A stretch of 32,000 bases of DNA from Ktedonobacterales bacterium (GTDB lineage Bacteria > Chloroflexota > Ktedonobacteria > Ktedonobacterales > JADMIN01): NCBI GenBank assembly GCA_030167145.1, contig CP126532.1, positions 1,440,001-1,472,000 on the forward strand, written 5' to 3'. Positions 1-24,113 of this stretch are shown one piece after another. Below the pieces are notes generated by a model. The model saw only the letters and a program-made list of their open reading frames with translations. It was not told where the DNA came from and made no database searches. The stretch's first letter is position 1, and each line of letters starts with the position of its first letter. A program made the position numbers and the translations under genes.

Positions 1-1064
1 GGGTCGGCTACCATATAGGGACTCCAGTTCTTGAAGCCCTGGATGCGGCCAACTTTCACCGTCGGGTCATGGATGTAGATCCAGTTGTCGGGGAAGACCG
101 ACTCGCGGTTGACCACCACCGCCACCGTCAGGAAGTCCCGGTATTTCAGGCTGTTCGCCGCCTGGCGCACCGGCTCCGGCAGCGCGGGGTCCATTTTATT
201 GATGAGTTCGCGCACCGGCAACGTAGAGATGAAATGCGTTCCGGTCACATCGCGCCGCTCGCCGCTCGCGTCCACCGCTGTCACGCGCGTCACGCGCCCA
301 TCCACATGATGTATCGCTTCAACCGACTGCCCCAGCGCCACCTCGTCGCCGTGCGCCAGCAGCAGATCGCGCACACGCTCCCACATCTGCCCAGGACCAA
401 ACCGCGGATAGCGGAACTCATCTATCAACGTTGTAATCACCGCGCCGCGCTGCTTGCCCTGCTTCTGCGGCAGCAGCGCGTTCTTGATCGCCTCGCTCAG
501 GTTCAGTCCTTTGATGCGCTGCGCCGCCCAGTCCGCCGAGAGCGCGCTGGTGCTCATGCCCCACACCTTCTCGGTGTACGTCTTGAAGAAGATGCTGAAG
601 AGCCGGTGGCCAAACTGATTGCTCACCCACTCCTCTAAGGTCTTCGGATTTTTCACCGGGCGGATGCGCGCCCAGGCGTAGCTGGACATGCAGCGCACCG
701 TCTCCACTGGCCCCAGATTGAGCAGCGCATTCGTGGCTTTGAGCGGGTAATCGAAGTATTTGCCGCGATAGTAGATGCGCGAGAGCCGCCCGCAGGTGAG
801 CAGCTCATCGCCCAGCACCTCGGTCCAGAGATCCTCGACCTCCTGACTCTTGCTGAAGAAGCGATGGCCGCCGATGTCGAAGCGATAGCCGCGATGCTCC
901 ACTGTGCGCGAGATTCCGCCGACGAAGCGCGGATCCTGTTCGAGGACCACCACGGGAACGTCGTGCTTCATCAGCTCATACGCCGCCGTCAGCCCCGCCG
1001 GACCCGCCCCCATCACCACCACCCGCGTCGCCGTATCGGCCTGTGTCCGCGCTCCCGCTGCCAT
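1..1064 (-). CDS. NAD(P)/FAD-dependent oxidoreductase (amine-oxidase/phytoene-desaturase-like fold), C-terminus cut by window edge
   Basis: Absent from the ORF track because it runs off the window. My translation of the reverse strand from ATG (comp. 1062-1064) gives MAAGARTQADTATRVVVMGAGPAGLTAAYELMKHDVPVVVLEQDPRFVGGISRTVEHRGYRFDIGGHRFFSK..., open down to position 3. N-terminal GxGxxG Rossmann motif. AAGGA Shine-Dalgarno (comp. 1071-1075) lies 6 nt upstream. Confidence 0.8.
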   Translation of the reverse strand, partial: MAAGARTQADTATRVVVMGAGPAGLTAAYELMKHDVPVVVLEQDPRFVGGISRTVEHRGYRFDIGGHRFFSKSQEVEDLWTEVLGDELLTCGRLSRIYYRGKYFDYPLKATNALLNLGPVETVRCMSSYAWARIRPVKNPKTLEEWVSNQFGHRLFSIFFKTYTEKVWGMSTSALSADWAAQRIKGLNLSEAIKNALLPQKQGKQRGAVITTLIDEFRYPRFGPGQMWERVRDLLLAHGDEVALGQSVEAIHHVDGRVTRVTAVDASGERRDVTGTHFISTLPVRELINKMDPALPEPVRQAANSLKYRDFLTVAVVVNRESVFPDNWIYIHDPTVKVGRIQGFKNWSPYMVAD

Positions 1065-1231
1065 GTCGTATCCTTGCCTACCGTGACTAGTTGCTCGCCG
1101 CTACAACACCCGATCCAAAGTTGCATGTTCGCTGCGCCAGTATAGCACCTTTGGCAATGATGTACTCATAAATGCGTACCCCATCCACATGGCAGGGTAT
1201 AGTACATGTCGCACATGCCGGGAGAACATAG

Positions 1232-3157
1232 GTGACGAGTGAAGGGCAATGCTTCGTGTCTGAGCCACAACGAATGAGGCATATCGTGTCCGATATGCGG
1301 CAAGGCGTGGCGCGCACTCTCGTGAGTCTGACCCAGGCGGCATTTCGCCATCTACGCGCCATGCGCTGGCATCACTACGTCTTCCTCTGCCTCTTTCTGG
1401 GGGCGGCGTTGCAGCACCTCTACGATCTCGGCCATCTCTATATCGCGCCCTGGGATGAAGCCGTACACGCCGTCGTCTCCGAGCATCTTGCGCTCCATCC
1501 GCTGCAACCCACGCTCTACGAAATCGCCGCGTTGCCGCCCCCATATCCAACAGATTGGACCTCCTTCCACATCTGGCTGCACATCCCACCTTTTGGCATG
1601 TGGGCCTCGGCGCTCAGCATGCGCCTGCTGGGCGACACACCCTTTGCCCTGCGGCTCCCCGGCGTCTTCTTCGTCCTCGGCGGCATGCTCGTCACCTATC
1701 TGCTGGGACGACGCCTGTTCCACCCCATCGTGGGGCTGGTGGGCGCGGCATTCGCTGGTTTCGCGCCGTATCCACTGCTCATCAGCCAGGGCTACGTCTT
1801 CGGCGACAACACCGAAACACCGCTGATGCTGCTGACCCCGCTGGCGATACTGGCGCTGGTCTGGGGCTACCGCAGCGGACGCTATCGCTGGCTGGCGCTC
1901 GCTGGCATATTCCAGGGACTCTGCTATCTCACCAAAGGCGCGCTGGGACTCGCCCCCACCGGCGTCGCGCTGGCGCTCATCGCGGGCGAGTGGCTTTTCC
2001 GCCGCGAACCCGGCTGGCACCGGCTGGGCCTGCGTGGCATCGTGGCCTTCTTCGCGCCTGTGCTCCTCATCATCGGCGCATACAACCTCTACATCATGCG
2101 CGCGTTTCCAGCCAGCGCGAAGCTCGAATCTAGCTTGTGGCGGCAAAACTTCTTCACCAGCGTCGAGTTTTGGGGCCGCCCACCTGATTATCACTTCACA
2201 CGCTATCTCTACATGCTCTATGGTCCAGCGTTGGCGTTACTGCTTGTGGGTAGTTTGTTGGTCGTGACCTACGTCGCCATCCGGCGGCAGTCGCGCGCTG
2301 ACCTCATCCTCGCCGCATGGAACCTCGCGCTCTACATCCCGCTCACGGCAGCGGTGACCAAAACACCACCCTATACCTATGCCGCCGTCCCCGCGTGGGG
2401 CCTGGTGGTCGCGCGTGCGCTCATGCTCGGCTGGTCGTCACGCTCGGCGCTAGCCAGGGCCGCAGGGCTGGGCGCACTCCTCGGCGCGGCGCTCACCGCG
2501 CTGCTCAACGGCACGAGTCTGCTCGCGCGTTACACCGCCAGCTATCGGGTCATCATCGTGGACAGCACCCAGGACTATTCTCTGCGCAGTCGCGTGGTTC
2601 CATACTTGTTGACCGGCGCGATCAGCCTGGCCGCGACGCTGCTATGCTATCTCGGCATCCTCGCCATACGCCGCTGGCGCGCATCTGGCAGCGCCGCGCG
2701 TCCCCTGCCAGCAGTCCTGGCAAAAATCAGCGGCTCGCCGAAAGATGACCCACGCGCTGGCCTGGAGCGACGCGCAGCGGCATTCCTGATGCTGGCATCG
2801 CTGCTCATCCTCTCAGCCTACTGGCTCAACTTCGATTTTCAGGCAGTTTCCGTGCGCCACACCAGCGCCATGCCGCAGACGCTGGGCGTCTATCTCGCCA
2901 GCCACACTCCCGCGAACGCGACCATCCTCATGGATAGCGACGCGCCCCTGGTACGCAATACCCGCCTGATGATCATGTTCTGGGCGCACCGCGATGTCTA
3001 CAGCCTGGATGTCTACCCCAATCCCAGCGTCTGCGCGGCGGAGCAGATGGCGGCGGCCAAGAATTCGCCATTCTATGTGCTCGCCGATCATCCGGTTCCC
3101 GGCAAGACGGTTGGCGGCATCGCCTCGTGGACACTGCTCACCCCGACCTGCCCATGA
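1232..3157 (+). CDS. Polytopic membrane glycosyltransferase, GT-C fold (ArnT/PMT-like, GT39/GT83 type)
   Basis: 641-aa ORF with many hydrophobic helices. 'DTPFALRLPGVFFVLGGMLVTYLLGRRLF' resembles the conserved ArnT/PMT_2 signature. GGGAG lies 7 nt upstream of GTG 1232. Internal ATGs at 1274, 1295 and 1361 are alternative starts. Confidence 0.7.
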   Translation: MTSEGQCFVSEPQRMRHIVSDMRQGVARTLVSLTQAAFRHLRAMRWHHYVFLCLFLGAALQHLYDLGHLYIAPWDEAVHAVVSEHLALHPLQPTLYEIAALPPPYPTDWTSFHIWLHIPPFGMWASALSMRLLGDTPFALRLPGVFFVLGGMLVTYLLGRRLFHPIVGLVGAAFAGFAPYPLLISQGYVFGDNTETPLMLLTPLAILALVWGYRSGRYRWLALAGIFQGLCYLTKGALGLAPTGVALALIAGEWLFRREPGWHRLGLRGIVAFFAPVLLIIGAYNLYIMRAFPASAKLESSLWRQNFFTSVEFWGRPPDYHFTRYLYMLYGPALALLLVGSLLVVTYVAIRRQSRADLILAAWNLALYIPLTAAVTKTPPYTYAAVPAWGLVVARALMLGWSSRSALARAAGLGALLGAALTALLNGTSLLARYTASYRVIIVDSTQDYSLRSRVVPYLLTGAISLAATLLCYLGILAIRRWRASGSAARPLPAVLAKISGSPKDDPRAGLERRAAAFLMLASLLILSAYWLNFDFQAVSVRHTSAMPQTLGVYLASHTPANATILMDSDAPLVRNTRLMIMFWAHRDVYSLDVYPNPSVCAAEQMAAAKNSPFYVLADHPVPGKTVGGIASWTLLTPTCP

Positions 3158-3180
3158 GCATAGCCGTGTGTGGGCGCTTC

Positions 3181-3209
3181 TTGTACGGCTGGGGCGTCAG
3201 GCGTATAAT
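3181..3209 (+). promoter_or_regulatory. sigma70-type promoter for the sdh operon
   Basis: TTGTAC (3181-3186), 17-nt spacer, TATAAT (3204-3209), read directly. It sits in the gap between the GT-C gene and sdhC. Confidence 0.55.
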
Positions 3210-3436
3210 CTGAAGCGCGGCGTGCAGCGCCGCGACCGTGACGATGGGGTCCGGTAGCGCAAGTATCAGTGCGGAGCGCGGCGGGTGCGCTGAGTCGTGA
3301 AAGCGTCGCGCGTGCCTACTTGCGGCGATGTATCGCACTCCTCCTGAGTCAACCCCTCTCCTTCACCGCGCGGTCAACCGGAATCCTCCCCGTTCCTGGG
3401 GCGCATCTCGCCCCCGCTAGTTCAGGAGAAGCGCGC

Positions 3437-3832
3437 ATGTATCGAGGCCAATCCGGCCAGTGGTCGTGGCTGTTTCATCGCATCACCGGGATGGGTGTCT
3501 TGCTGTTCCTCCTGGTTCACATCGTAGACATCACCCTCATCGGTTTCGTCAGTGGCAAGGTCTATGACGACGCACTGCGCGTCTTCAGCACGGGCATCGT
3601 GCGGCTCGTTTCGCTCGCGCTGATCGCCGCCGTGCTGTATCACGCTTTCAACGGTGTGCGCATCATCCTCGTGGACTTCTGGCCCGCCGCGCACAAGTTC
3701 CAGCGCCAAATGTTCATCGGCGTGCTCGTGCTGACCATCGCTGGGTTCATTCCCATGGGCTTCTTCGTCGTCGCGCCGATCTTCGGCCACTGCCCGACAG
3801 GCCCCAACGGCTGCCAGCCGTTCTTGATTTGA
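3437..3832 (+). CDS. sdhC: Succinate dehydrogenase cytochrome b subunit
   Basis: MYRGQSGQWSWLFHRITGMGVLLFLLVHIVD... is a 3-TM SdhC-like protein. CAGGAGAA SD at 3423-3430 precedes ATG 3437. First gene of an sdhCDAB-ordered cluster. The track ORF extends to 3269, but that extension is not SdhC-like. Confidence 0.8.
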   Translation: MYRGQSGQWSWLFHRITGMGVLLFLLVHIVDITLIGFVSGKVYDDALRVFSTGIVRLVSLALIAAVLYHAFNGVRIILVDFWPAAHKFQRQMFIGVLVLTIAGFIPMGFFVVAPIFGHCPTGPNGCQPFLI

Positions 3833-3854
3833 GCCAGAGGAAAGGAACGCTCGC

Positions 3855-4328
3855 ATGGCCACTACTCAACAAGAGGCATCTCCGCAAGTCCGCCGCAAGC
3901 CGCGCCTCGTCGCTGCCTACGGCTCCAGTTCGAAGCCCACCTCCGGCGGCTGGGAAACCTTCTCCTGGTATTTTCTGCGCGTCAGCGGTGTCGCGCTGAT
4001 CTTCCTCGTCATCATCCATCTGCTGCTGATGCATGTCATCAACGATGTTTCAGCCACGACCTATTGCTTTGTCGTCGCGCGCTACCAGAATCCCTTCTGG
4101 CGCGCCTACGATCTGCTGCTGCTGACACTCGCCCTGCCGCACGGCCTCAACGGCCTGCGCATCATCACCGACGACTATCTGCACTCGCGCGGCTGGCGGC
4201 TGGTTGTGCAGTCGGGTCTTTTCCTGTCGCTGCTCTTCTTCTGGCTGATGGGTTCGATGACCATCATCACTTTCCAGCCCACGCCGGGCGTATGTCCCAC
4301 CACGCATACGGCGATGGTGAGCCGCTAA
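3855..4328 (+). CDS. sdhD: Succinate dehydrogenase hydrophobic membrane anchor subunit
   Basis: 157-aa membrane protein (WETFSWYFLRVSGVALIFLVIIHLLLMH...) located between sdhC and sdhA. GAGGAAAGGA lies upstream of the ATG. Confidence 0.7.
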   Translation: MATTQQEASPQVRRKPRLVAAYGSSSKPTSGGWETFSWYFLRVSGVALIFLVIIHLLLMHVINDVSATTYCFVVARYQNPFWRAYDLLLLTLALPHGLNGLRIITDDYLHSRGWRLVVQSGLFLSLLFFWLMGSMTIITFQPTPGVCPTTHTAMVSR

Positions 4329-4362: not shown

Positions 4363-6117
4363 ATGAACTATCACAAATACGATGTCGTCATCGTTGGCGC
4401 GGGCGGCGCGGGTCTGATGTCGGCCATGCAGCTTGCCCACAATACCAGCGTCGCCGTCATCAGCAAGCTCTACCCCACGCGCTCGCACACCGGCGCCGCG
4501 CAGGGCGGGGTCGCCGCCGCGCTGGGCAACCAGGAAGAAGACCACTGGAAGTGGCATATGTTCGACACCGTCAAAGGTGGCGACTACCTCGTAGATCAGG
4601 ATGCCGCCGAGGTGCTGACCCGCGAGGCGATTGACGCCGTCTATGACCTCGAACACTGGGGCCTTCCCTTCAACCGCACCGAGGACGGCAAGATTGACCA
4701 GCGCCGCTTCGGCGGCCACACGCGCAACTTCGGCGAGGGGCCAGTGCGCCGCTCATGCTATGCTGCCGACCGCACCGGCCACATGATCTTGCAGACGATG
4801 TACCAGCAGTCGGTGAAGAATCAGGTAAAGTTCTACAATGAATACCTGATGCTTGACCTGCTCATCAACGACGGCCAGGCCTGCGGCGTCGTCGCGCTTT
4901 GCCTGCGTGACGGCACGATCCACACCTTCCACGCCAAAACCATCGTCTTCGCCACCGGCGGCTATGGCCGCGCCTGGCGCATCACCAGCAACGCGCTCGC
5001 CTGCACCGGCGACGGCATGGCGGTCGCCTACCGGCGCGGCATCCCGCTGGAAGACATGGAAATGTACCAGTTCCACCCCACCGGCCTCTACAAGGTGGGC
5101 ATTCTGCTCAGCGAGGCGGCGCGCGGCGAGGGCGCATACCTGCTGAACAAAGATGGTGAGCGCTTCTGCGTGCGCTATGCGCCGACGATGGAGGAGCTTG
5201 CCCCGCGCGATATGGTCTCGCGCTTCATCGTGCAGGAGATCACCGAGGGGCGCGGCATTGACGGCAAAGATTACGTCTATCTCTCAGTCGCGCACCTGGG
5301 CAAAGAGAAGATTGACGCTAAGCTCCCTGACATCACTGACTTCGCCCGCAACTACCTGGGCGTCGAGCCATATTACGAGCCGGTGCCGATCCAGCCGACA
5401 GCGCACTACGCCATGGGCGGCATCCCCACCGACATCGAGGGCCGCGTCATCATGGATGAGAACAACACGACACTCCCCGGCATGTATGCCGCGGGCGAAG
5501 TGGCGTGCGTCTCGGTCCACGGCGCGAACCGCCTGGGCACCAATTCCCTCGTAGACCTGATCGTCTTTGGCCGCCGCGCGGGCAAGCATATCGCCGCGAA
5601 ATGGCTGCCCGAGGCCGATTTCGCGCCGCTGCCGCCCAACCCCGACGCCTGGGCCACCGAGATGGTGGAGAGTTTGCTGGCGCGGGCGAGCGCGGGCGCC
5701 AAGGGCAAGGGCGAGACGCAAGAAGCGATACGTCAGGATCTGCGCGACAGCATGATGGAGAACGCGGGCGTGGTACGTGACGAGCAACACCTCACCGCGC
5801 AAATGGCGAAGGTAGCCGAGCTAAAAGAACGTTGGCAGACCATGCGCCTGATGGATACCAGCCGCACCTTCAACACCGAGCTGATGGAGGTGATCGAGCT
5901 GGGCAACCTGATCGAGTGCGCCGAGGCCACCGTCGCCGGGGCGCTGGCTCGCCAGGAAAGCCGTGGCGCGCACTATCGTAGCGACTTCCCCACCCGCGAC
6001 GACAAGAACTTCCTCCAGCACACGCTAGCCTTCCGAAGCGAGACGGCCGGCGCGCCGGAGCTACGTTACAAGCCGGTGGTCATCACCGAATTCCAGCCCA
6101 AAGAACGCAAATATTAG
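4363..6117 (+). CDS. sdhA: Succinate dehydrogenase flavoprotein subunit
   Basis: 584 aa. YDVVIVGAGGAGL FAD-binding N-terminus, 'SHTGAAQGG' covalent-FAD His motif, 'HPTG', 'RLGTNSL' and 'ESRGAHYR' motifs. AGGAGAA SD upstream. Confidence 0.97.
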   Translation: MNYHKYDVVIVGAGGAGLMSAMQLAHNTSVAVISKLYPTRSHTGAAQGGVAAALGNQEEDHWKWHMFDTVKGGDYLVDQDAAEVLTREAIDAVYDLEHWGLPFNRTEDGKIDQRRFGGHTRNFGEGPVRRSCYAADRTGHMILQTMYQQSVKNQVKFYNEYLMLDLLINDGQACGVVALCLRDGTIHTFHAKTIVFATGGYGRAWRITSNALACTGDGMAVAYRRGIPLEDMEMYQFHPTGLYKVGILLSEAARGEGAYLLNKDGERFCVRYAPTMEELAPRDMVSRFIVQEITEGRGIDGKDYVYLSVAHLGKEKIDAKLPDITDFARNYLGVEPYYEPVPIQPTAHYAMGGIPTDIEGRVIMDENNTTLPGMYAAGEVACVSVHGANRLGTNSLVDLIVFGRRAGKHIAAKWLPEADFAPLPPNPDAWATEMVESLLARASAGAKGKGETQEAIRQDLRDSMMENAGVVRDEQHLTAQMAKVAELKERWQTMRLMDTSRTFNTELMEVIELGNLIECAEATVAGALARQESRGAHYRSDFPTRDDKNFLQHTLAFRSETAGAPELRYKPVVITEFQPKERKY

Positions 6118-6129
6118 CAGCTGGCGATG

Positions 6130-6189
6130 CCCGAACCCGCGCAGGCGGGTTTCGCGGCCGCAGGCCATGTAGGCGCGGTTTCAACCGCC
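6130..6189. repeat. REP/MITE-like intergenic element, short copy (family 1), between sdhA and sdhB
   Basis: cccgaacccgcgcaggcggg...gccatgtaggcgcggtttcaaccgcc. Both termini recur at 21135-21249. Contains hairpins GAACCCGC/GCGGGTT and GCGG-tttcaa-CCGC. Confidence 0.6.
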
Positions 6190-6213
6190 AGCTTATCGAG
6201 AGGATAGAGAACG

Positions 6214-7807: not shown

Positions 7808-8653
7808 TCATCTTTCCAGAGCCGACAATCCCGCTTGAGCTGACTGGAGTTGATCCACGCGTTGCGCGAGACTACTGGGGGTCACGCCAGAGAAGGCTTT
7901 GATCTCCCGGTTGAAGTGAGACTGGTCGGAGTAGTTGAGGGTAGCGGCCACATCAGCCAGGCGAGCGAAACGCCGCGTTCGGATGAGCCTGACGGCTTCA
8001 TTGAAGCGCCGTAGTCGGAGATAAGTTTGAAGCGAGAGTCCCACAGTCTGTGAAAAGCGTCTCTCAAGTTGGCGCTCGGAGATGCTCAAAGCGCGAAGCA
8101 GGTCTCTCACCTGAAGGCCACCAGGGTTGCGGTCGATCAGCCAGAGGCCCTCTTCCACCAGCAGGTCTCTTGGCTTCTCCTGCTCGAGCTTGCTCATCAG
8201 AAAGCTGGTAAGAAGGCGAACCCGCTCCTGATCGCCCCTGGCTTCTGTGAGCAGATCAGTGAGACCTGCCGCCCCAAATTCATCGAGCCGTGCCCATCCG
8301 TTGGCCAGTGCCGAAGCGTTGAGTCCGAAGAGTGTCTTGAGCGCATGTGGTTTGAAGACAACCTGCATCGTCATAAATGGTCCGTGCTTGAAGGTCATGC
8401 TACTTGGTTCTGCCCCCGGACCATAGAGGAACAAGGGAGCCGGGCTAGACGCGCCCCCAGATGGGGTGGTGATCTGCTCAAGCGCGCCGTGCCCATCGCT
8501 CACCCGCAAGTGGAAGAGCAAGCCCGGCACGCCCGCAGGGGTGACACTGATGGCGACGCACTCATCGCCGTTGTAGTGTGTCATCTGGACAGACTCGACC
8601 GCAGTGCTGAGGATGCCTGAGGCAGGAACGTTGACGAGTTGTGTTGAGCTCAC
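7808..8653 (-). CDS. AraC family transcriptional regulator
   Basis: C-terminal double HTH: 'LSISERQLERRFSQTVGLSLQTYLRLRRFNEA...ATLNYSDQSHFNREIKAFSGVTPS'. GTG start. Confidence 0.85.
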   Translation of the reverse strand: MSSTQLVNVPASGILSTAVESVQMTHYNGDECVAISVTPAGVPGLLFHLRVSDGHGALEQITTPSGGASSPAPLFLYGPGAEPSSMTFKHGPFMTMQVVFKPHALKTLFGLNASALANGWARLDEFGAAGLTDLLTEARGDQERVRLLTSFLMSKLEQEKPRDLLVEEGLWLIDRNPGGLQVRDLLRALSISERQLERRFSQTVGLSLQTYLRLRRFNEAVRLIRTRRFARLADVAATLNYSDQSHFNREIKAFSGVTPSSLAQRVDQLQSAQAGLSALER

Positions 8654-8678
8654 AATGAACGCCCCATCATCTCCCGTC

Positions 8679-8710
8679 GAGACTCTCGGCCATTCATGGC
8701 CGAGAGTCTC
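8679..8710 (-). terminator. Perfect 15-bp inverted repeat downstream of the PLP-enzyme gene and upstream of the AraC gene
   Basis: gagactctcggccat-tc-atggccgagagtctc, read directly. It lies 53 nt after the stop at 8763 and 26 nt before the AraC start. There is no U-tract on the minus strand, so the terminator call is tentative. Confidence 0.45.
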
Positions 8711-8762
8711 CTATTTCTTGCGCTGTGGCTGTGCGTCGGTGTGTACGACCGCGAGGGAATGG

Positions 8763-9968
8763 CTAGCGAGCGCCAGTGGCTGCCCCCGCTTTCTCGCGCT
8801 CACTGCTCGCCGCCGCGTGCTTCGCCGCGACGCTCGCCAGCGCCTGATCCAGATCGGCGATCAAGTCGTCCGCGTCCTCGATGCCCACCGACAGCCGCAG
8901 CAGCGTATCCGTCACGCCACGTTTCTCGCGCTCCTCGGCGGGGATGGAGCCGTGCGTCATGCTCGCCGGGTGGCAGCAGAGCGATTCGACGCCGCCCAGG
9001 CTTTCGGCCAGCGCGAAGAGTCGCAGGTGGCGCACGAACGTATCCACATCCTCGCGCGTACCCTCGAAGGCGAACGAGACCATACCGCCGAAGCCCGCCA
9101 TCTGGCGCTGCGCCAGTTCGTGGTCGGGATGCGACGCCAGCCCTGGATAATACACCGTCCGCACCAGCGGATGCCCCGAAAGAAACTCAGCGACGCGCAT
9201 CGCGTTCTCGCAGTGCTGGCGCATCCGTACAGCGAGCGTCTTCACGCCGCGCAGCACCAGCCACGAATCGAAGGGCGAGGGTACGCCACCCGCCGCATTC
9301 TGATAGAACTTCATCTCCTGGTACAGTTGCTCGTCTGAGGTCAACACCGCGCCGCCAATGACATCGCTGTGTCCGTTGAGGTACTTCGTCGTGCTGTGCG
9401 TCACCACGTCTGCGCCCAGATCCAGCGGCTTCTGCAAGTACGGCGACGCGAACGTGTTGTCCACGACGACGGTGATGCCGCGCTTGTGCGCCTCATCGGC
9501 GACCGCGCGTATGTCCACCAGCGAGAGCAGCGGATTCGTCGGCGTCTCCAACCAGATCATGCGCGTCTCCGGGCGCATCGCGGCGGCGTAGGCCGCCACA
9601 TCTCCCGCTGGCACATAGGTGAAGTCCACCCCCATCGGGCGCAGCACCCGCTCGAAGATACGATACGTGCCGCCGTAGAGGTCGTCGCCCGCGATCACAT
9701 GCTGGCCGGGGCGCAGCACGCTCAGCACCGCGCTGGTCGCCGCCATGCCACTCGAAAAGGCAAGGCCGTAGCGCGCGTTCTCCAGCGAGGCCAGGCAGGT
9801 TTCCAGCGCCGTGCGCGTGGGGTTGTGGGTACGAGAGTACTCGAAGCCCTTGTTGTCGCCTAGCCCCTGCTGCGTGTAGGTGGAGGTCTGAAAAATCGGC
9901 GTAATCGTCGCGCCGGTGCTGGGGTCAGCGTCTTGTCCGGCGTGAATCGCCCGCGTTGCGAAATCCAT
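8763..9968 (-). CDS. Cys/Met-metabolism PLP-dependent enzyme (cystathionine gamma-synthase/gamma-lyase family)
   Basis: 401 aa. MDFATRAIHAGQDADPSTGATITPIFQTSTY..., PLP-lysine motif 'STTKYLNGHSDVIGG', and 'SLGGVESL'. Confidence 0.9.
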   Translation of the reverse strand: MDFATRAIHAGQDADPSTGATITPIFQTSTYTQQGLGDNKGFEYSRTHNPTRTALETCLASLENARYGLAFSSGMAATSAVLSVLRPGQHVIAGDDLYGGTYRIFERVLRPMGVDFTYVPAGDVAAYAAAMRPETRMIWLETPTNPLLSLVDIRAVADEAHKRGITVVVDNTFASPYLQKPLDLGADVVTHSTTKYLNGHSDVIGGAVLTSDEQLYQEMKFYQNAAGGVPSPFDSWLVLRGVKTLAVRMRQHCENAMRVAEFLSGHPLVRTVYYPGLASHPDHELAQRQMAGFGGMVSFAFEGTREDVDTFVRHLRLFALAESLGGVESLCCHPASMTHGSIPAEEREKRGVTDTLLRLSVGIEDADDLIADLDQALASVAAKHAAASSEREKAGAATGAR

Positions 9969-10026
9969 CGGGGGGTAGCCTCACTTCATTGTGGTCGTGC
10001 GCTCTCAACATCGCCGTCGTCTGCTT

Positions 10027-10120
10027 CTGGTCGTGCAGTGGCATGTGTTCGCCACACGTCACCGCACGACGCCGCTAGCGGAAGTATACCATGCGCGCTC
10101 GCGCGTCTTGCCCGGCTGCG
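10027..10120 (-). repeat. 94-bp direct repeat, copy 1 (promoter-like -10, palindrome, long hairpin), upstream of the PLP-enzyme gene
   Basis: Aligns without gaps to 12477-12570 at an offset of exactly 2450 bp; I counted 8 mismatches in 94 positions. On the minus strand it reads TGGTATACT (comp. 10083-10091), then CCGCTAGCGG (10072-10081), then a hairpin at 10030-10070. Confidence 0.8.
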
Positions 10121-10147
10121 CTATATCCAGCACGACGCTACGCTGAG

Positions 10148-11257
10148 CTACACCGCAACCCTCGCGACGTTGAGGTGGTGCGCCGCATCCGTGCCCGTCC
10201 AGGCAACAAGCATTTGTTGGTCAGGTGGCGACAGAACAAAGCCGACAACCGTGCCGCCAACCGCTGTCTCTGGAAGCGTTGCCTTCACGAAATTGGTGGT
10301 CCACTGGTTGAGGTCGAGCGTGTACAGCACGTTCACATGATGCGCCGCATCCGTGCCCGTCCAGCCCAGCCAGTACGGTGGGATGTGGGCCAGTTGTTCG
10401 ATCAGCCCCATCATGCTCGGCCCCGCGCCACTCGTCTCGGCGAACGTCGGCTGCTGGGTCCATGTCGTGCCGTTGGATGAGGTGGCCCACGCGATACGGC
10501 GGCTCGTCAGATCGCTCCAGCTCAGGAAGAGCCGCAACTGAGCGGTCATCGAGAGATCCTGGATGACCGCTGGCTGGCCGAGGCTGTGGAAGCCGCTGAG
10601 GATAGTCTTCGTTCCTGCCACCAGCCCATGATCCGTGATGCTGATGGGCAGCACGTTGAGCGAATGGCCCGCATCCGTCCCCGCCCATGACAGCAGCAGT
10701 GTCTTCAAGTCGGTGAGGGTAAACCACTCGAGCGCGGGCGAGGTGAAGCTGGTGTCGCTCCCCAGCGTCAGCTTCATGGGCGTCGCGCCGGGCACAGAGT
10801 AGAGCACGTTCAGGTGATGCGCTGCATCAGTGCCGGTCCATGCCAGGGCAACCGGCGCAACCTGGGCGCCTTCACCCGTCCCTCGCACCACTGCGGGCCG
10901 GACGAACGACGTTTCGTTCAGCGTCTGTTTCCCAAAAAATTTGACCGTATCATTGGTGTACTCGTAATTGAGCCGACCATCCGTCCCGGTCCAGGCCAGC
11001 ACAGCCAGCGGACCAACTGGAGCGCTGGGTCCGCGTTGGGTCCAGAGCGCCGGACCATCCTTGCTCGTCTCGGGGAGCACTACCTTGCTCGCCTCGTGCG
11101 GAACTGTGTATTCCGCCACAGTCGCCGTGGCCCGCGTCGCCGCCGCGGCCTGGGCGGTACGTGCCGCCACTCCACCGCCGACGACGAAACTCCCGCCGAC
11201 CAATGCGACAATCCCTACGATGCCCTCTAACCGCCCGATGATTCTTCGCCAGTACAT
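10148..11257 (-). CDS. Secreted/anchored repeat protein with six 'W(T/A)GTDxxHxLNV'-type repeats (probable beta-propeller)
   Basis: Start MYWRRIIGRLEGIVGIVALVGGSFVVGGGVAA (signal/anchor) with GGGAGG SD. Repeats: LAWTGTDGRLNYEY, LAWTGTDAAHHLNVLYS, LSWAGTDAGHSLNVLPI, a degenerate LSWSDLTSRRIAWATSSNGTTW, LGWTGTDAAHHVNVLYT and VAWTGTDAAHHLNVARV. An identical 24-nt DNA stretch occurs at 10179-10202 and 10341-10364. Confidence 0.75.
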   Translation of the reverse strand: MYWRRIIGRLEGIVGIVALVGGSFVVGGGVAARTAQAAAATRATATVAEYTVPHEASKVVLPETSKDGPALWTQRGPSAPVGPLAVLAWTGTDGRLNYEYTNDTVKFFGKQTLNETSFVRPAVVRGTGEGAQVAPVALAWTGTDAAHHLNVLYSVPGATPMKLTLGSDTSFTSPALEWFTLTDLKTLLLSWAGTDAGHSLNVLPISITDHGLVAGTKTILSGFHSLGQPAVIQDLSMTAQLRLFLSWSDLTSRRIAWATSSNGTTWTQQPTFAETSGAGPSMMGLIEQLAHIPPYWLGWTGTDAAHHVNVLYTLDLNQWTTNFVKATLPETAVGGTVVGFVLSPPDQQMLVAWTGTDAAHHLNVARVAV

Positions 11258-11515
11258 AGAGAAACCTCCCGTGTTCCGCCGCAGTGAGCGGCTTACGTGT
11301 AGCGTCTCCTCGTATGGGGATAGCGCCTCCTGGCGGATAGACATGCGCACAGCGGCAACACTTCCTTGGCAGCGCGCATGCCTCCTCTCCAGCGTGACAT
11401 GTTCTCCTATATGTCAGCCTGCCATCTCCAGCAGACCACGGGCGGGTCTCGAAACCATCTCACTGCATGGCGTGCGTCTCACACCTCATTCACACTTCGC
11501 TGTCAGGCCCAGCTC

Positions 11516-12476: not shown

Positions 12477-12570
12477 CTGGTCGTGCAGTGGCATGCGTTC
12501 GCCACACGCCACCGCACGACTCCGCTAGCGGCAGTATACCATGCGCGCCCGCGTGTTTTGCCCGGCTGTG
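12477..12570 (-). repeat. 94-bp direct repeat, copy 2, upstream of the SDR/repeat-protein gene pair
   Basis: See copy 1. TGGTATACT at comp. 12533-12541, CCGCTAGCGG at 12522-12531, hairpin at 12480-12520. Confidence 0.8.
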
Positions 12571-12740
12571 TCGCGCCGCTGATAGGTAGCGATGACAGCT
12601 ATACTTGAGATACACTGCGCCTACACGTTATCCGACCTGGCTGTACGAGGAAGTTCACAAGTGCTTCCGGAACACAGAGAATTGCCATGGTTAGGTATTC
12701 GTATTGCATTCAACAGACTCGTTGGGCAGGGGACACCGCC

Positions 12741-13010
12741 ATGTCATTCCTCAACTTTCCCGCAGGCACGGTACTGGTCGTGCCAAACCTCTTCCGCGCA
12801 TGGGTGTGCATTGTCCGCGATCATGATGGCTTGGGCGAACTCGTGCCCGCGACGAACGCGGACGACCTCTTGGAAGATGCGGCCAGTTTCTTGAAGTCAT
12901 TCGGGCCCACTGACCTCGACGGGGGCGTTATCCGCGTGTGCCCACCCGAACTTGCGGCCAAAGCGGTCTTCTCCGATATTGATTTCGCCACAAGGGAAAG
13001 GGATACATGA
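12741..13010 (+). CDS. Hypothetical 89-aa protein, translationally coupled to the TIR gene
   Basis: MSFLNFPAGTVLVVPNLFRAWVCIVRDHDGLGELVPATNADDLLEDAASFLKSFGPTDLDGGVIRVCPPELAAKAVFSDIDFATRERDT. GC3-rich codons from 12741 onward. Its TGA stop overlaps the next ATG (ATGA at 13007-13010). No family recognised. An alternative ATG is at 12687. Confidence 0.45.
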   Translation: MSFLNFPAGTVLVVPNLFRAWVCIVRDHDGLGELVPATNADDLLEDAASFLKSFGPTDLDGGVIRVCPPELAAKAVFSDIDFATRERDT

Positions 13011-14317
13011 TGGCGACCTATCGGCCTACATTCGTGAGCCACGCCCACGCCGATAATGACCTCTGCGACCGCTATGTGAATGCCCTCCGTGCGCGTGGGG
13101 CAGATGTCTGGTACGACCGCACCAATGCCCAAGTGGGCCACATGCTCGGCGCACAACTACGCCACGAACTCGTGCAGCGCTCCGCTTTCGTCCTACTCCT
13201 GACCCAGCCTGCACTCGACTCGTTCTGGGTGACGCTCGAAACACAAAGCTATCTCCAATTAATGGCCCAAGACCCCGCCCGTATCCTGGTGCCGGTCCGT
13301 ATTGGCCCGTGCGACGTTCCCGCCATACTCAACGCTTTCCTATGGGTAGATGCCCTCCATATGCCCTTCGAGCAGGCCGTAGATGCCATCGCCTCCGCTC
13401 TCACCATCACCACGGTGGGGACGCGGCCCGCCGCACCCATGCCTGATGTAACGCCACCCACCCCTGCCGCCCCACGCGACGCCCTGCCGCCGCTCGGCCC
13501 CGCCCCTGCCCCGCGCGACAGCACCTCCGCGCTGCATCTCACCCCTACCTCGCTCTACAATCTCGGCTTCCGTGGCTACACCGTGCGCGGCGTCGATGTG
13601 GTGCTGCCGCCGCTCTGCCCGGTCCCTAACGGCGTCTTCATCATGGGCAGCGACACGAGCAAAGACCCCCAAGCCGACGACAACGAGACGCCGCAATACC
13701 TGGTCGAAGTCGGCCCTTTCGCTCTCGGCCAGCATCCCATCACCGTCGCCGAGTATGCCTGCGCCGTCCGCACCAGTGCCGTTCGCATGCCATCCGAGCT
13801 AGCGGGCGTCTCCTGGCAGAAGCAATTGGCACGCATAGACCACCCCGTCGTCTGCGTCTCCTGGCAGGATGCCGTGGCCTACCTGCGCTGGCTGGCGGGC
13901 GTCACCGATCAACCCTGGCGACTGCCCACCGAAGCCGAGTGGGAGGAAGCAGCACGCGGTGCCGATGGGCGCATCTACCCCTGGGGCGACACCTTCGACA
14001 AGAACCGCTGCAACACCAGCGGAAGCGGTATCTGGACGACGACGCCCGTTGGGCGCTATCCCAATAGTGCTAGCCCCTACGGCGCGCAGGATATGGCGGG
14101 CAACGTCTCTGAGTGGACCAGCAGTCTCTTCGAACCTTATCCCTATAATAAGGCGGATGGGCGTGAAGACCAGAAATCTACTGCAACTAGGGTGCTGCGT
14201 GGCGGCTCGTGGTACGATGTTTCCTGGGGCGCGCGCGCAGCCTTCCGCGACGGCAGCGGACCGGACTACTGCAACAACGATTGGGGGTTCCGGCCTGCGT
14301 GGGCAGCTGATTTATAA
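13007..14317 (+). CDS. TIR domain :: Pro-rich linker :: FGE-sulfatase (SUMF1-like) domain fusion protein
   Basis: The N-terminal ~120 aa ('TFVSHAHADNDLCDRYVNALRARGADVWYD...SAFVLLLTQPALDSFWVTLETQ') align to bacterial TIR domains, including the conserved Glu (E78, codon 13238-13240). The C-terminal ~240 aa carry FGE-sulfatase motifs: 'HPVVCVSWQDAVAYLRWL', 'RLPTEAEWEEAARG', 'YPWGD', 'DMAGNVSEWT', 'RVLRGGSW' and 'WGFRPA'. Confidence 0.85.
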   Translation: MMATYRPTFVSHAHADNDLCDRYVNALRARGADVWYDRTNAQVGHMLGAQLRHELVQRSAFVLLLTQPALDSFWVTLETQSYLQLMAQDPARILVPVRIGPCDVPAILNAFLWVDALHMPFEQAVDAIASALTITTVGTRPAAPMPDVTPPTPAAPRDALPPLGPAPAPRDSTSALHLTPTSLYNLGFRGYTVRGVDVVLPPLCPVPNGVFIMGSDTSKDPQADDNETPQYLVEVGPFALGQHPITVAEYACAVRTSAVRMPSELAGVSWQKQLARIDHPVVCVSWQDAVAYLRWLAGVTDQPWRLPTEAEWEEAARGADGRIYPWGDTFDKNRCNTSGSGIWTTTPVGRYPNSASPYGAQDMAGNVSEWTSSLFEPYPYNKADGREDQKSTATRVLRGGSWYDVSWGARAAFRDGSGPDYCNNDWGFRPAWAADL

Positions 14318-21134: not shown

Positions 21135-21249
21135 CCCGAACCCGCGCAGGCGGGGCCAACCTGCGGCGCAGCTAGCGACGTGGAGGAGCGGAGCAGGTTG
21201 TGAGCGCAGCGGAGCGGCTGTAAGCCATTCAGGCGCGGTTTCAACCGCC
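21135..21249. repeat. REP/MITE-like element, long copy (family 1)
   Basis: Shares 'cccgaacccgcgcaggcggg' (left end) and 'gccatt-caggcgcggtttcaaccgcc' (right end) with 6130-6189. Carries ~55 extra internal bp, including the inverted repeat CAACCTGC...GCAGGTTG. Confidence 0.6.
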
Positions 21250-21654
21250 CGCTCCGCTATGCAAGTTTGCGGTCAAGCGATAGGAGTTCACGTGGTCGTG
21301 GTGCTGCTCTGTAAACGTAACGCATCCCCATACGTCTGAAAGAACAACCACGGCGGACACAGCAATGTAAAGCTGGCAGCGATGTTGCTAGCGCATGGCC
21401 CAGCGTCGTGGATATCCGGGACTGCATGAGACATCAAACGCCGAATACGCACGCTCACGCCTCGTGTGTTAGATAATGCAGCGTGAGGCCACGCGCGCCG
21501 GGGAACCACTGTTACCCGATGCGCGTAGTACGTAGTACGATGAGATTTCGTTCGCGCGTGCGTGTGCTGCTGAGAGATGGAGGGCCACCAGCGTAACATC
21601 GTGTGTGGGACTGTGGCGCGCATCATAGCGCTTCGGGCCGTCCTGGCGCGAGAG

Positions 21655-21827: not shown

Positions 21828-22841
21828 GTGTCGGGGCCGCAACAGCGCGTGAAATTGGAAGATCGTCCTGCTGTATCCATCCGCGAATTCAGCGAAGCTG
21901 CCGAGCGCGTCATCGAAAACATCGAGCGCGTCATCATCGGCAAGCACGAAGCCGTCCGGCTCACGCTGATCGCCGTACTCTGTGGTGGCCACGTCTTGAT
22001 CGAAGACGTGCCCGGCGTCGGCAAAACCGTGCTGGCGAAGTCCATCGCCCGCTCCATCGGCTGCACCTTCAAGCGCATCCAGTTCACCCCAGACCTCCTG
22101 CCCAGCGATGTCACGGGGGTCTCGATGTACAACCAGCGCGCAGGCGAATTCGAGTATCGCCCCGGCCCCATCATGAGCCAGTTCGTCCTCGCCGACGAAA
22201 TCAACCGCGCCACACCGAAAACCCAATCGGCGCTGCTCGAAGCCATGGAAGAACAGCAGGTGACGGTAGACGGCGTCACCCATCTACTGCCCGCACCCTT
22301 CATCGTCATGGCCACGCAAAACCCCATCGAATATGAAGGCACCTTCCCACTCCCCGAAGCGCAACTCGACCGCTTCCTGCTCAACATCAGCATGGGCTAC
22401 CCTTCGCCCGCCGATGAAGTCACCATCATGGACCGCCAGCAGCGCTCGCACCCGATAGATTCGCTGGAACAAATCCTCAGCGAAGAAGACCTGCGCGTCA
22501 TGCAGGCTCAGGTGCGCGAGATGCGCATCGAGAAAGAGATCCGCGAGTACATCGTTTCGATTGTCGCCGCCACCCGCCAGCACCAGCAAGTCTACCTCGG
22601 CGCCAGCCCGCGAGGCTCCCTCGGCCTCTTCCACGCCTCCCAGGCGATGGCCGCGCTGCGCGGCGGCGACTTCGTCAAAGCCGATGACGTGAAGGCGCTG
22701 GTCAAGCCCGTCCTCAGCCATCGCATCATCGTCGCGCCCGCCGCCCGTGTGCGCGGCGTCACCCCCGCGACGATCCTCGATGAAGTGCTGGGGCTAGTGC
22801 CAGTTCCGGGTGGCCCCGGATCGTACAACGGAAGGCATTGA
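21828..22841 (+). CDS. MoxR family AAA+ ATPase
   Basis: '[20 protein letters not shown]' (Walker A), '[24 protein letters not shown]' (Walker B/AAA_3) and '[11 protein letters not shown]'. GTG start; an alternative GTG is at 21849. Confidence 0.93.
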
Positions 22842-22845
22842 GACC

Positions 22846-24045
22846 ATGCGCCCGTGGCAATTGATCGGCATGACCCTGATCCTCTGGGTGCTGGCCCTCA
22901 CCATCGGCTGGCGGCCCTTCTGGGTGCTGTCCTGGGCGCTCACCGTCGCGTTTCTGCTCTCGGTGGTCTGGCTCGCGCTCAGCATGAAGGGTCTCACCTT
23001 CAAGCGCTCCGCGCTGGGTGGCCGCGCGCAGGTTGGCGAGCGCGTCGAAGAACGCCTCGCGCTGGAGAACCACTCCTGGGTGCCCAAGCTCTGGGTGCAG
23101 GTGTCGGACGGCTCAACGTTGCCGGGCCATCATGCCGGCTATGTCTCCAGCGTCGGACCGCATCAGCGCATCGCCTGGCGCGCCCGCACCATCTGCCGTC
23201 GCCGGGGCCGCTACACCCTCGGCCCGGTGATCGCCGCCACCGGCGACCCGCTCGGCCTCTTCAAGCGCGAGCTATCCCTCGCGCCTGAGCACGAGTTGCT
23301 CGTCTTGCCGCCCGTGCTGCCCATCGCCACGTTCGCGCTCTTCCAAGGCTTGACGCCCGGTCGCGGGCGCGGCTCGCAGCGCTCGCTGCAAACCACCACC
23401 AACGCCGTGACCGTCCGCAACTACGTCCCTGGCGACGCGCTCACCCGCATCCACTGGCCCACCACCGCCCGTCTCGGCCAGTTCATGGTCAAAGAATTCG
23501 ACCTCGATCCGACGATTGACGTGGTGGTGCTGCTCGACCTCGACCGCGATATCCAGGTGGGCGAGGGCGATAGCTCCACCGAAGAATACGGCGTCACCAT
23601 CGCCGCAACCCTCACCTCCTACCTGCTCCGCCAGCAAGAGCTAGCCGTCGGCCTCTCCGTCAATGGCGCGAACGAAGCCTTGCTGCCACTGGATCGCGGT
23701 GAACGCCAGATTGACCGCGCCCTGGAGGTGCTGGCCATCGTCCATCCCCAGCGCTGGAGTCCACTCACCGAGGCGCTGGTCGCCGAGGAGATGCGTGTCG
23801 CCCGTAACACGGTGCTGGTCGTCATCACGCCTTCCACCGAGATGGAATGGGTCGAATCGCTGCATCATCTGCAACGGCGTGGCGTGCATCCGATGGTCAT
23901 CTTGCTCGATCCGCACTCCTTCGACGACAAACTTGGCGGCAACGCCGCCGTCGCCGATGCGTTGGTCGCGGCTGGCATTCCCGTCGTGCCCGTGCAGCGC
24001 GGTGATCCCTTGCTGCATGTGCTGGAACAAGGTCCACAATATTAG
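22846..24045 (+). CDS. DUF58 domain-containing protein (MoxR partner, vWA-like)
   Basis: Two N-terminal TM helices. Hallmark 'VRNYVPGDALTRIHWPTTARLGQFMVKEFD'. ATG lies 5 nt after the moxR stop. Confidence 0.88.
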   Translation: MRPWQLIGMTLILWVLALTIGWRPFWVLSWALTVAFLLSVVWLALSMKGLTFKRSALGGRAQVGERVEERLALENHSWVPKLWVQVSDGSTLPGHHAGYVSSVGPHQRIAWRARTICRRRGRYTLGPVIAATGDPLGLFKRELSLAPEHELLVLPPVLPIATFALFQGLTPGRGRGSQRSLQTTTNAVTVRNYVPGDALTRIHWPTTARLGQFMVKEFDLDPTIDVVVLLDLDRDIQVGEGDSSTEEYGVTIAATLTSYLLRQQELAVGLSVNGANEALLPLDRGERQIDRALEVLAIVHPQRWSPLTEALVAEEMRVARNTVLVVITPSTEMEWVESLHHLQRRGVHPMVILLDPHSFDDKLGGNAAVADALVAAGIPVVPVQRGDPLLHVLEQGPQY

Positions 24046-24113
24046 CGTCTTCCTGTGGTGGACGGCAGGCGCCGCCCCATCCCTGGCGGAATAGGATACT
24101 CTAGGATACTCCG

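Follow-up and report, generated by a model that had tools for sequence, protein, structure and literature searches.

A 32,000-nt stretch of the genome of a Ktedonobacterales bacterium (assembly GCA_030167145.1, contig CP126532.1, positions 1,440,001 to 1,472,000; hereafter the window) contains a gene encoding a 436-aa protein, in which a TIR domain is joined to a domain with the fold of formylglycine-generating enzymes (FGE). The start of this gene overlaps the end of an open reading frame (ORF) of 89 aa. The locus raises the question of what such a fusion protein does and whether it acts alone. A sequence-only reading had interpreted the two ORFs as a novel conflict cassette, encoding a self-contained sensor plus TIR effector that is gated or assisted by the small protein. 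It is probable, in our view, that the 436-aa protein is a stand-alone cytoplasmic receptor-effector, comprised of a TIR effector and a hypervariable lectin-fold sensor of the kind diversified by diversity-generating retroelements (DGRs), and that the small ORF is unrelated to it. The first part of the earlier proposal is retained and is strengthened by the presence of a variable region; the part concerning a small partner is not, since the two genes do not co-occur in the other loci compared. The gene is a new Chloroflexota member of the effector-C-type lectin (CLec) DGR targets of multicellular bacteria, a kind of protein that has already been described computationally. What is notable in its family, referred to here as TIR-FGE, is that the proteins have been reduced to two domains, a minimal form, and that their genes have expanded into dispersed, solitary copies.

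Domain composition of the TIR-FGE protein

The N-terminal part of the protein (residues 9-126) matches the Pfam family TIR_2 with an E value of 4.8e-17 (63 bits, compared with a cutoff of 28 bits), and residues 205-431 match the family FGE-sulfatase (E 4.4e-49). The models of PADLOC match only the TIR part (SAVED_TIR, 4.8e-13; ThsB, 1e-7). Inspection of this domain substantiated the earlier statement that it retains the glutamate of TIR NAD+-cleaving enzymes: residue E78, which lies within S72-x-W74-V75-x-x-E78, is paired in HMMER alignments with the Glu of the W-x-x-x-E motif of PdTIR (3h16), an AbTir-like TIR (7uxr) and TcpB/BtpA (4c7m, 4lzp), and also with the Glu of the sequence WCLMEL of flax L6 (3ozi). 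It is unchanged across 83 aligned homologs of the family. The Glu of the W-x-x-x-E motif is the catalytic residue of TIR NADases (SARM1, plant and bacterial TIRs), and TIR domains need to self-associate in order to form the NADase site.

The AlphaFold2 (AF2) model of the protein, built on the family alignment, has a mean predicted local distance difference test score (pLDDT) of 92.1. Strands and helices alternate in its TIR part (pLDDT above 90), and disorder is confined to residues ~131-160 (pLDDT 45-68 over blocks 131-160, with residues 137-149 scoring less than 50), in keeping with the Pro-rich linker that had been noted ahead of the FGE fold. Residues 161-204, which are linker-like by sequence, were modeled as beta strands that extend the FGE domain (pLDDT 96-98). 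Foldseek matches comprise ToxD (34% identity over 251 aligned columns), CalU17, EgtB, SUMF2, FGE structures (E ~1e-16), PvdO and the DGR variable protein TvpA (2y3c, E 3.6e-14), the last of which is also a sequence match (2.6e-4).

In an alignment with the FGE of S. coelicolor (6muj, 2q17), the cysteines of LCHDSYC face gaps or non-Cys residues of the segment RVLRGGSW--YDVSW-GARAAFR of the window protein. The Cys-x4-Cys pair is therefore absent, as had been recognized from the sequence, and the protein is not a formylglycine-generating enzyme. No signal peptide or transmembrane (TM) segment was found ahead of the TIR domain, which starts at residue 7, and its ligand must consequently be sensed inside the cell.

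The window protein is identical to protein P0001, encoded by a Ktedonobacterales metagenome-assembled genome (MAG) on a 5.07-Mb contig, and carries the name 'GldJ' at NCBI and 'formylglycine-generating enzyme' at JGI. Its architecture is not new, contrary to the sequence-only reading: more than 90 full-length TIR_2 plus FGE-sulfatase homologs are present among the matches listed (43-73% identity, aligned over 99% of the length), and fusions of FGS or CLec sensors with TIR and other effectors have been described from comparative genomics (PMC7159879, PMC8195603, PMC7517822, PMC10907252). All organism-named homologs among those listed belong to Ktedonobacterales or Ktedonobacteraceae. Names given to homologs by NCBI and JGI include 'nonheme iron enzyme' and 'ToxD'; for the TIR-FGE family these names, as well as 'GldJ' and 'formylglycine-generating enzyme', are misleading. 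Variants of 560-670 aa carry a helical insert between the two domains, and the FGE core is better conserved in the family alignment than the TIR domain.

The variable region

The family alignment revealed that the 24-26 residues located between the invariant motifs RGGSW and GFR are hypervariable at discrete columns amid an invariant scaffold (ARAA-x-R...P...GFR). This region occupies the loop in which FGE has its cysteines. In one cluster of proteins grouped at 90% identity (P0026 and P0134-P0136), the differences are almost confined to the RGGSW-GFR stretch. The same concentration of changes is seen at the nucleotide level in (i) one gene found in two MAGs (L015 and L016), with 22 of 1338 nt differing, 15 of them within 71 nt and all at codon position 1 or 2, and (ii) a 666-aa variant found in two samples (L018 and L021, the flanks of which are nearly identical), with 25 of 2001 nt differing, 21 of them within 68 nt and none at position 3.

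Codons ending in a pyrimidine (NNY) make up 87.5% (NNC 75%) of the 18 hypervariable columns of 8 loci, compared with 57% in other variable columns (Fisher p = 1e-11). Diversity in the hypervariable columns is 0.28 at the third codon position, against 0.56 and 0.53 at positions 1 and 2; the third position is about half as diverse as the other two, which is the opposite of normal coding sequence. The NNY bias combined with variation at positions 1 and 2 points to adenine-directed mutagenesis from AAY codons, which is the signature of DGRs. Point-wise positive selection cannot account for 15-21 changes in ~70 nt with only 2-4 substitutions elsewhere, and gene conversion from paralogs would bring in third-position and scaffold differences, such as the paralogs do show.

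A complete canonical DGR cassette with a related target was found on a viral contig (L046; IMG/VR UViG_3300009431_001055, 841-4316). It contains, in order, an FGE-sulfatase target of 515 aa with its variable region at 2257-2388, the template repeat (TR; ~2570-2697), bAvd (2701-3252) and a reverse transcriptase (RT; RVT_1, 3222-4316). Eighteen of the 19 substitutions between variable region and TR are at TR adenines. The variable region of this target lies exactly between RGGSW and GFR, and the homologous segment of the window protein is aa 403-426.

Taken at the level of sequence comparison, the variable regions of the TIR-FGE family are rewritten in natural populations by adenine-directed mutagenesis, and the family has the predicted fold, the position of the variable region and the mutational signature of DGR variable proteins. 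A variable region placed in the former active-site loop of FGE would be the hallmark of a ligand-binding surface. These results favor the earlier suggestion that the FGE-like domain, being devoid of the Cys pair and carrying a DGR-type hypervariable region in that very loop, is a binding or sensor module and not a catalyst.

The signature is less pronounced in the window gene itself. Its variable region contains 15 NNY codons out of 18, which is not significant alone. Compared with the two closest relatives, substitutions at positions 1+2 and at position 3 occur in ratios of 17:6 and 21:6 within the variable region, and of 121:154 and 143:190 elsewhere (p = 0.008 and 0.0005, respectively); this is a shift between paralogs, and as such is weaker than the evidence from near-identical pairs of the family.

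A separate peculiarity was observed in the family member P0011, in which part of the C-terminal sequence is duplicated internally (...TGSRVQRGGTWNNNS-TGSRVLRGGSWNNNARLARAA...). The duplication is rich in Asn, as an unmutated template would be, and may be the footprint of aberrant retrohoming.

Table 1. Positions of the features of the TIR-FGE locus, in coordinates of the window
Feature	Position	Strand	Basis
TIR::FGE-fold (CLec/FGS) fusion gene	13007..14317	+	intact ORF, 436 aa; Pfam TIR_2 and FGE-sulfatase
TIR domain, aa 7-132	13025..13402	+	Pfam, PADLOC, alignments with TIR structures of the PDB, AF2
E78 codon (GAA), predicted catalytic Glu of the TIR NADase site	13238..13240	+	PDB alignment and invariance
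Pro-rich flexible linker, ~aa 133-160	13403..13486	+	low pLDDT; poorly conserved in family alignment
FGE-fold C-type-lectin domain with N-terminal beta extension, ~aa 161-436, without Cys pair	13487..14314	+	Pfam, AF2, Foldseek
DGR-type variable region, aa 403-426, YDVSWGARAAFRDGSGPDYCNNDW, between RGGSW and GFR	14213..14284	+	hypervariable columns, NNY bias, homology with L046
Scaffold after the variable region and 3' end, GFRPAWAADL*	14285..14317	+	locus comparison
Conserved 89-aa ORF, sharing ATGA with the start of TIR-FGE; partnership not conserved	12741..13010	+	homologs; no co-occurrence
Sigma-70-like promoter match preceding the small ORF	12654..12682	+	weak: 2 sites vs 0.7 +/- 0.7 expected
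Low-GC intergenic/promoter patch	12570..12760		GC 0.513

Proposed mode of action and competing interpretations

If the 436-aa protein is a receptor-effector of the kind proposed, the template and the RT would be sited elsewhere in the genome, with the TIR-FGE genes as 'remote' targets. The variable face of the C-terminal domain would bind an intracellular foreign or non-self macromolecule, and a multivalent or oligomeric ligand would cluster the protein and bring its TIR domains together. The assembled TIR site would then cleave NAD+, leading either to depletion or to a cADPR-type signal, and this cleavage would arrest or kill the affected cell of the filament. A protein acting in this way would be about the simplest conceivable receptor-to-effector immune protein, in which a programmable binding loop is connected through a flexible linker to a TIR NADase, without an NTPase switch or partner genes. 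It would also be suited to asking (i) whether ligand-induced clustering alone can activate a TIR domain, (ii) what DGR-diversified intracellular lectins recognize and (iii) whether one retroelement can serve remote targets genome-wide.

At least three dispersed TIR-FGE paralogs are located on the one 5.07-Mb contig. That for P0002 (73% identity) is on the same strand as the window gene, with its start 23.2 kb further downstream (L002 6001-7335, equivalent to window coordinates 37498-38832, i.e. beyond the window end), and that for P0032 (58% identity) lies ~400 kb away on the same contig. The closest homolog in other loci is P0003 (68% identity). We regard it as possible, albeit with some reservation, that Ktedonobacterales maintain a dispersed repertoire of minimal, NTPase-less receptors combining TIR with a hypervariable lectin, present in many solitary copies per genome, and that a single DGR or a small number of them rewrites these copies in trans. 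Were this so, the repertoire would represent an anticipatory, antibody-like set of intracellular receptors wired to a TIR death or signaling enzyme in a multicellular bacterium, and the window gene would be one (possibly frozen) member of it.

Several observations weigh against the receptor-effector interpretation. The search for repeats and short-word blastn revealed no second copy of the variable region, i.e. no TR, in the 32-kb window or the fetched flanks; neither RT (RVT_1) nor bAvd is encoded in the window, and no RT was found in the fetched flanks, which for the other distinct loci comprise ~0.1 to 10 kb per side. The 90% cluster of the window protein has one member and thus offers no population variants. 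The variable region differs from that of the paralog 23 kb away at scaffold and third positions as well, which indicates that no single template is maintaining both genes at present. At its 3' end the window gene has GCTGATTTA, as opposed to GCTGGTTCA in 7 of the 8 other distinct loci, and it is not followed by the GCGCGCAGCGCG-A/T element that several relatives have kept. Among solved structures, those nearest in sequence to the C-terminal domain are enzymes, with ToxD (E 3.3e-32) in first place and CalU17 and EgtB after it. Finally, a defense-island setting was not found: the window and the homologous loci consist of housekeeping and metabolic genes.

The sequences missing from the window copy deserve some description. 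The downstream element, GCGCGCAGCGCG(R)(R)AAATTTTGG, is composed of a GC hairpin and an A/T tract and lies 78-83 nt past the stop codon in L002 (7413), L015 (11418), L016 (1890) and L017 (5377), that is, at a fixed distance in four loci of different paralog lineages. A ATTTCTTGCTTTCT box is present 8-19 nt past the stop in L015, L016 and L017, and absent after position 14317 of the window. Either of these may be a terminator or an element related to DGR homing; GCTGGTTCA itself might conceivably serve as a homing element similar to the IMH (initiation of mutagenic homing) site. The window copy, having neither the 3' GCTGGTTCA nor the downstream element, may be frozen. It shows no direct sign of ongoing diversification and adds little beyond what the family reveals.

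It could be argued from these losses, together with the lack of the upstream TGCTACACT-type motif described below, that the window gene is a relic, a duplicated paralog which came to lie beside the small ORF, is no longer diversified and may have little or no function. Its homology with the nearby paralog runs from ~24 nt inside the coding sequence to the stop codon, so that only the gene body is shared; this would suit a relic, and it rules out a larger duplicated segment around the gene. We nevertheless find this interpretation very unlikely. The ORF is intact over its full length and preceded by a strong, purine-rich ribosome-binding site (AAGGGAAAGGGA), the protein retains 21 of 21 invariant family residues (E78 included), and third positions account for 154 of 275 and 190 of 333 substitutions separating the gene from two relatives outside the variable region, which indicates purifying selection.

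The kinship with ToxD, a toxoflavin biosynthesis protein, and the other enzymes would be expected if the C-terminal domain were itself an enzyme or small-molecule binder of the SUMF1/EgtB/PvdO/ToxD superfamily, with TIR as the regulatory or oligomerizing part of a metabolic or signaling enzyme. The database names 'nonheme iron enzyme' and 'ToxD', the stronger conservation of the FGE core relative to TIR, and the metabolic neighbor genes agree with such a role. It is made improbable, however, by the missing Cys pair, by scores far below the cutoffs of all NCBIfam enzyme equivalogs (EgtB, 89 vs 360 bits; PvdO, 77 vs 500), by the lack of a conserved biosynthetic gene neighborhood and by the hypervariability between near-identical strains of the loop equivalent to the active site, which is unfit for a fixed catalytic pocket. 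The literature on ToxD yielded nothing on its mechanism.

A sensor and effector of the same architecture might also serve a purpose other than antiviral defense, namely kin discrimination, allorecognition or programmed cell death in mycelium or spore development, with the lectin recognizing developmental cues or cell-surface cues of self or non-self and TIR as the death or signaling output. The confinement of the family to filamentous, multicellular Ktedonobacterales, its multiple copies per genome and the housekeeping character of its loci, as opposed to defense islands, are compatible with this possibility, and roles of DGR-diversified CLec proteins in signal transduction, regulation and cell death have been discussed (PMC7517822, PMC10907252). 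Such roles seem rather unlikely for a protein that has no signal peptide or TM segment and so would sense its ligand intracellularly, although the present observations suit them and antiviral sensing alike.

The receptor-effector interpretation accords with several groups of known proteins, each of which differs from the window protein in some respect. The fold, the C-terminal site of the variable region and the NNY (AAY-template) signature are shared with TvpA of Treponema denticola (2Y3C), Mtd of Bordetella phage BPP-1 (the CLec prototype) and the target of L046; these, however, are devoid of TIR and occur on surfaces or in phage tails, and their genes adjoin a TR-Avd-RT of their own, whereas the window protein is cytoplasmic and TIR-fused, with no TR or RT within 32 kb. 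Closer are the multidomain DGR proteins of filamentous cyanobacteria and other multicellular bacteria (PMC7517822, PMC10907252), which likewise have an N-terminal effector (TIR among them) and a C-terminal CLec domain and can be diversified in trans. Vallota-Eastman et al. (2020) described kinase-, caspase- and TIR-like-CLec proteins and remote variable proteins in filamentous cyanobacteria, and TIR-like domains were one of the less frequent features at the N-terminus (PMC7517822). The window family differs from the cyanobacterial proteins in belonging to Chloroflexota, in its minimal two-domain form and its many solitary copies, and in being known here without an observed DGR. Proteins of this kind are enriched in multicellular bacteria, whose DGR targets were treated by Dore et al. 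(2024), with a proposal of DGR-diversified 'antigen sensors' (PMC10907252). According to Kaur, Burroughs, Iyer and Aravind, FGS is always C-terminal and a predicted direct sensor of invaders, and TIR is a recurrent N-terminal effector (PMC7159879, PMC8195603). Overall, the CLec/FGS domains fused to TIR and other effectors in multicellular bacteria are predicted sensors of invaders and are often diversified by DGRs, sometimes in trans (PMC7159879, PMC8195603, PMC10907252, PMC7517822).

STAND/NACHT-FGS and vWA-MoxR (VMAP) systems resemble the window protein in their C-terminal FGS, TIR effector and bias towards multicellular prokaryotes, but possess an NTPase switch, effector-associated adaptor domains and conserved multi-gene neighborhoods, all three of which are missing here. 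Membership in these systems is ruled out, as the protein has two domains only and no NTPase occurs in it or in its operon. AbTir, PdTIR, TcpB/BtpA, ThsB and the TIR-SAVED proteins of CBASS have the same TIR_2 fold with the Glu of S-x-W-x-x-x-E; unlike these known effectors, the window gene has no ThsA, SAVED, cyclase or STING partner nearby, and activation would come from the fused lectin domain. Thoeris was rejected because no ThsA-type gene (SIR2/Macro/TM-SLOG) is adjacent, the neighbors being an SDR, the 89-aa ORF, a CpXC protein and a beta-propeller-like protein. CBASS and retrons were rejected because only the TIR part matches their models and the partner genes are absent. The FGE-fold proteins human SUMF1, the FGEs of S. 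coelicolor and T. curvata, ToxD, CalU17, EgtB and PvdO share the fold and the Pfam family of the C-terminal domain, which differs in lacking the Cu-binding Cys pair and the DinB domain of EgtB and in the hypervariability of its active-site-equivalent loop.

The literature searched contained no experimentally characterized TIR-FGE protein, as had been surmised, nor an experimental study of any other effector-CLec DGR target of this kind, and no papers pairing FGE-sulfatase with TIR domains by those terms. Searches for DGRs in Ktedonobacter or Ktedonobacteria returned incidental mentions only, and Roux et al. (2021) do not mention TIR or Chloroflexi.

The 89-aa ORF and the genomic setting

The TIR-FGE ATG (13007-13009) overlaps the TGA of the 89-aa ORF (13008-13010). 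This ATGA junction had been taken as a sign of a stoichiometric partner. The small ORF, whose start at 12741 is set by its homologs, is a real, conserved gene, judging by 9 homologs that share 60-75% identity over ~85 aa and 35 invariant columns. It has no family match in Pfam, NCBIfam or PADLOC, as previously noted, and its profile retrieved nothing from the PDB below E 0.35; an AF2 model based on 10 sequences reached a pLDDT of only 53 and is unreliable.

Gene calls and tblastn revealed no TIR or FGE gene downstream of a small-ORF homolog in any of 5 informative loci. In the P0124 contig, the homolog is followed by a 244-aa gene on the opposite strand; in L001 (911-1279), by genes for a GYD protein and a serine recombinase; in L003 (4292-5401 and 6001-6242), the homolog is frameshifted and lies beside a DDE transposase; and in L004 and L006 unrelated sequence follows. 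Conversely, the same methods detected no small ORF near the TIR-FGE gene in 9 distinct loci (L002, L009, L011, L012, L013, L015, L016, L017 and L018), among which are both other paralogs of this genome and P0003. As a side observation, the homologs in L001 and L003 adjoin mobile-element genes, and the record of L003 is titled Sphingobacteriaceae, though its small-ORF homolog resembles the others, which may reflect a binning error.

The last 11-12 residues of the small ORF of the window (SDIDFATRERDT) deviate from the family consensus (PDAxxRPF) right at the overlap, which suggests that the overlap is a local accident; it is best read, from the loci compared, as an accident of where the paralog landed. 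The notion of a conflict cassette of two genes, with the 89-aa protein made by translational coupling and acting on the TIR::FGE protein as a gate or a helper (an antitoxin-like inhibitor or an adaptor, for instance), can draw on the real stop/start overlap, on the conservation of the small protein and on transcription. The 90 nt that precede the ATG of TIR-FGE contain no promoter-like motif, and the two genes are therefore likely to be co-transcribed, probably as a fortuitous transcript starting at the promoter match at 12654-12682. Against this, a TGCTACACT-type motif precedes the ATG of most TIR-FGE homologs by 55-75 nt, but not that of the window gene. Considering also the absence of co-occurrence in both directions (0/5 and 0/9 loci) and the aberrant C-terminus, the cassette is extremely unlikely. 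A functional partnership is not supported, and the small ORF appears to be an unrelated gene. Of the earlier statements on it, the overlap, the reality of the ORF and its lack of a known family stand, whereas the partnership has to be abandoned.

The upstream motif has the form (GA)TGCTACACTG, which resembles an extended -10 box, in L009, L011, L013, L015 and L016, with a variant in L012. A similar GATACACTG occurs in the window at 12606-12617, upstream of the small ORF only and 130 nt before its ATG.

The patch noted earlier as AT-rich (12570-12760) is indeed so: its GC content is within the lowest 0.3% of 191-nt windows, the mean of the whole window being 0.639 (sd 0.047). Directly upstream of it lies one copy of a 92-nt direct repeat (10027-10118 and 12477-12568; 92% identity), which has sharp boundaries and is intergenic at both positions. 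A long hairpin is contained in each copy; its energy on the minus strand is -44 to -50 kcal/mol, and in copy 2 the stem extends over 18 bp. A 28-nt piece of the repeat matches, in reverse, a site just upstream of the small-ORF homolog in L005. An Rfam scan of the window, this repeat included, gave no family at gathering score.

No conserved neighbor is present across the homologous TIR-FGE loci examined, and their contexts are unrelated: amidase/MaoC; MutL, methyltransferase and deacetylase genes on one side with a rhomboid protease on the other; Pth and a WYL regulator; the vicinity of ALAD; and that of ATP synthase genes. In the window, the first part encodes a PMT-type glycosyltransferase, sdhCDAB, a RibD_C protein, an AraC regulator, a Cys/Met PLP enzyme (cystathionine synthase-like), a 400-aa repeat protein and an SDR. 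The TIR-FGE gene is followed by genes for the CpXC protein, the beta-propeller-like protein, adenosine deaminase, an APH kinase, an M24 peptidase and MoxR-DUF58-transglutaminase, and the last part encodes a FAD oxidase, an SDR, an HNH protein and ScpB. PADLOC gave no match for those neighbors that were tested. The MoxR (AAA_3)-DUF58-transglutaminase (TgpA) operon (21828-26534, + strand), which has a weak bpMoxR match, was considered as part of a VMAP-like ternary system with the TIR-FGE gene. This was rejected, as the operon is 7.5 kb away behind unrelated genes and no such link exists in the homologous loci.

In L011, the TIR-FGE gene is followed at a distance of 1.2 kb by the gene for a 781-aa protein (8516-10861), after which comes a DDE transposase pair. 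The N-terminal TIR domain of the 781-aa protein is 41% identical to that of the window protein over 103 aa, and it has no other Pfam match. The 400-aa protein of the window (10148-11350, - strand) contains an N-terminal hydrophobic segment and at least 5 repeats of ~60-70 aa with the motif W(T/A)GTDAxHHLNV. It has no match in Pfam or NCBIfam and may represent an undescribed repeat or propeller family.

A palindrome resembling repetitive extragenic palindromic (REP) sequences, GGCGCGGTTTCAACCGCC (other strand, GGCGGTTGAAACCGCGCC), recurs intergenically in these Ktedonobacterales genomes. It is found in the window at 6154-6193 and 21214-21253, in L002 at 5948-5974 and 8961-8988, and just past the TIR-FGE stop codon in L009, L011, L013 and L018-L021.

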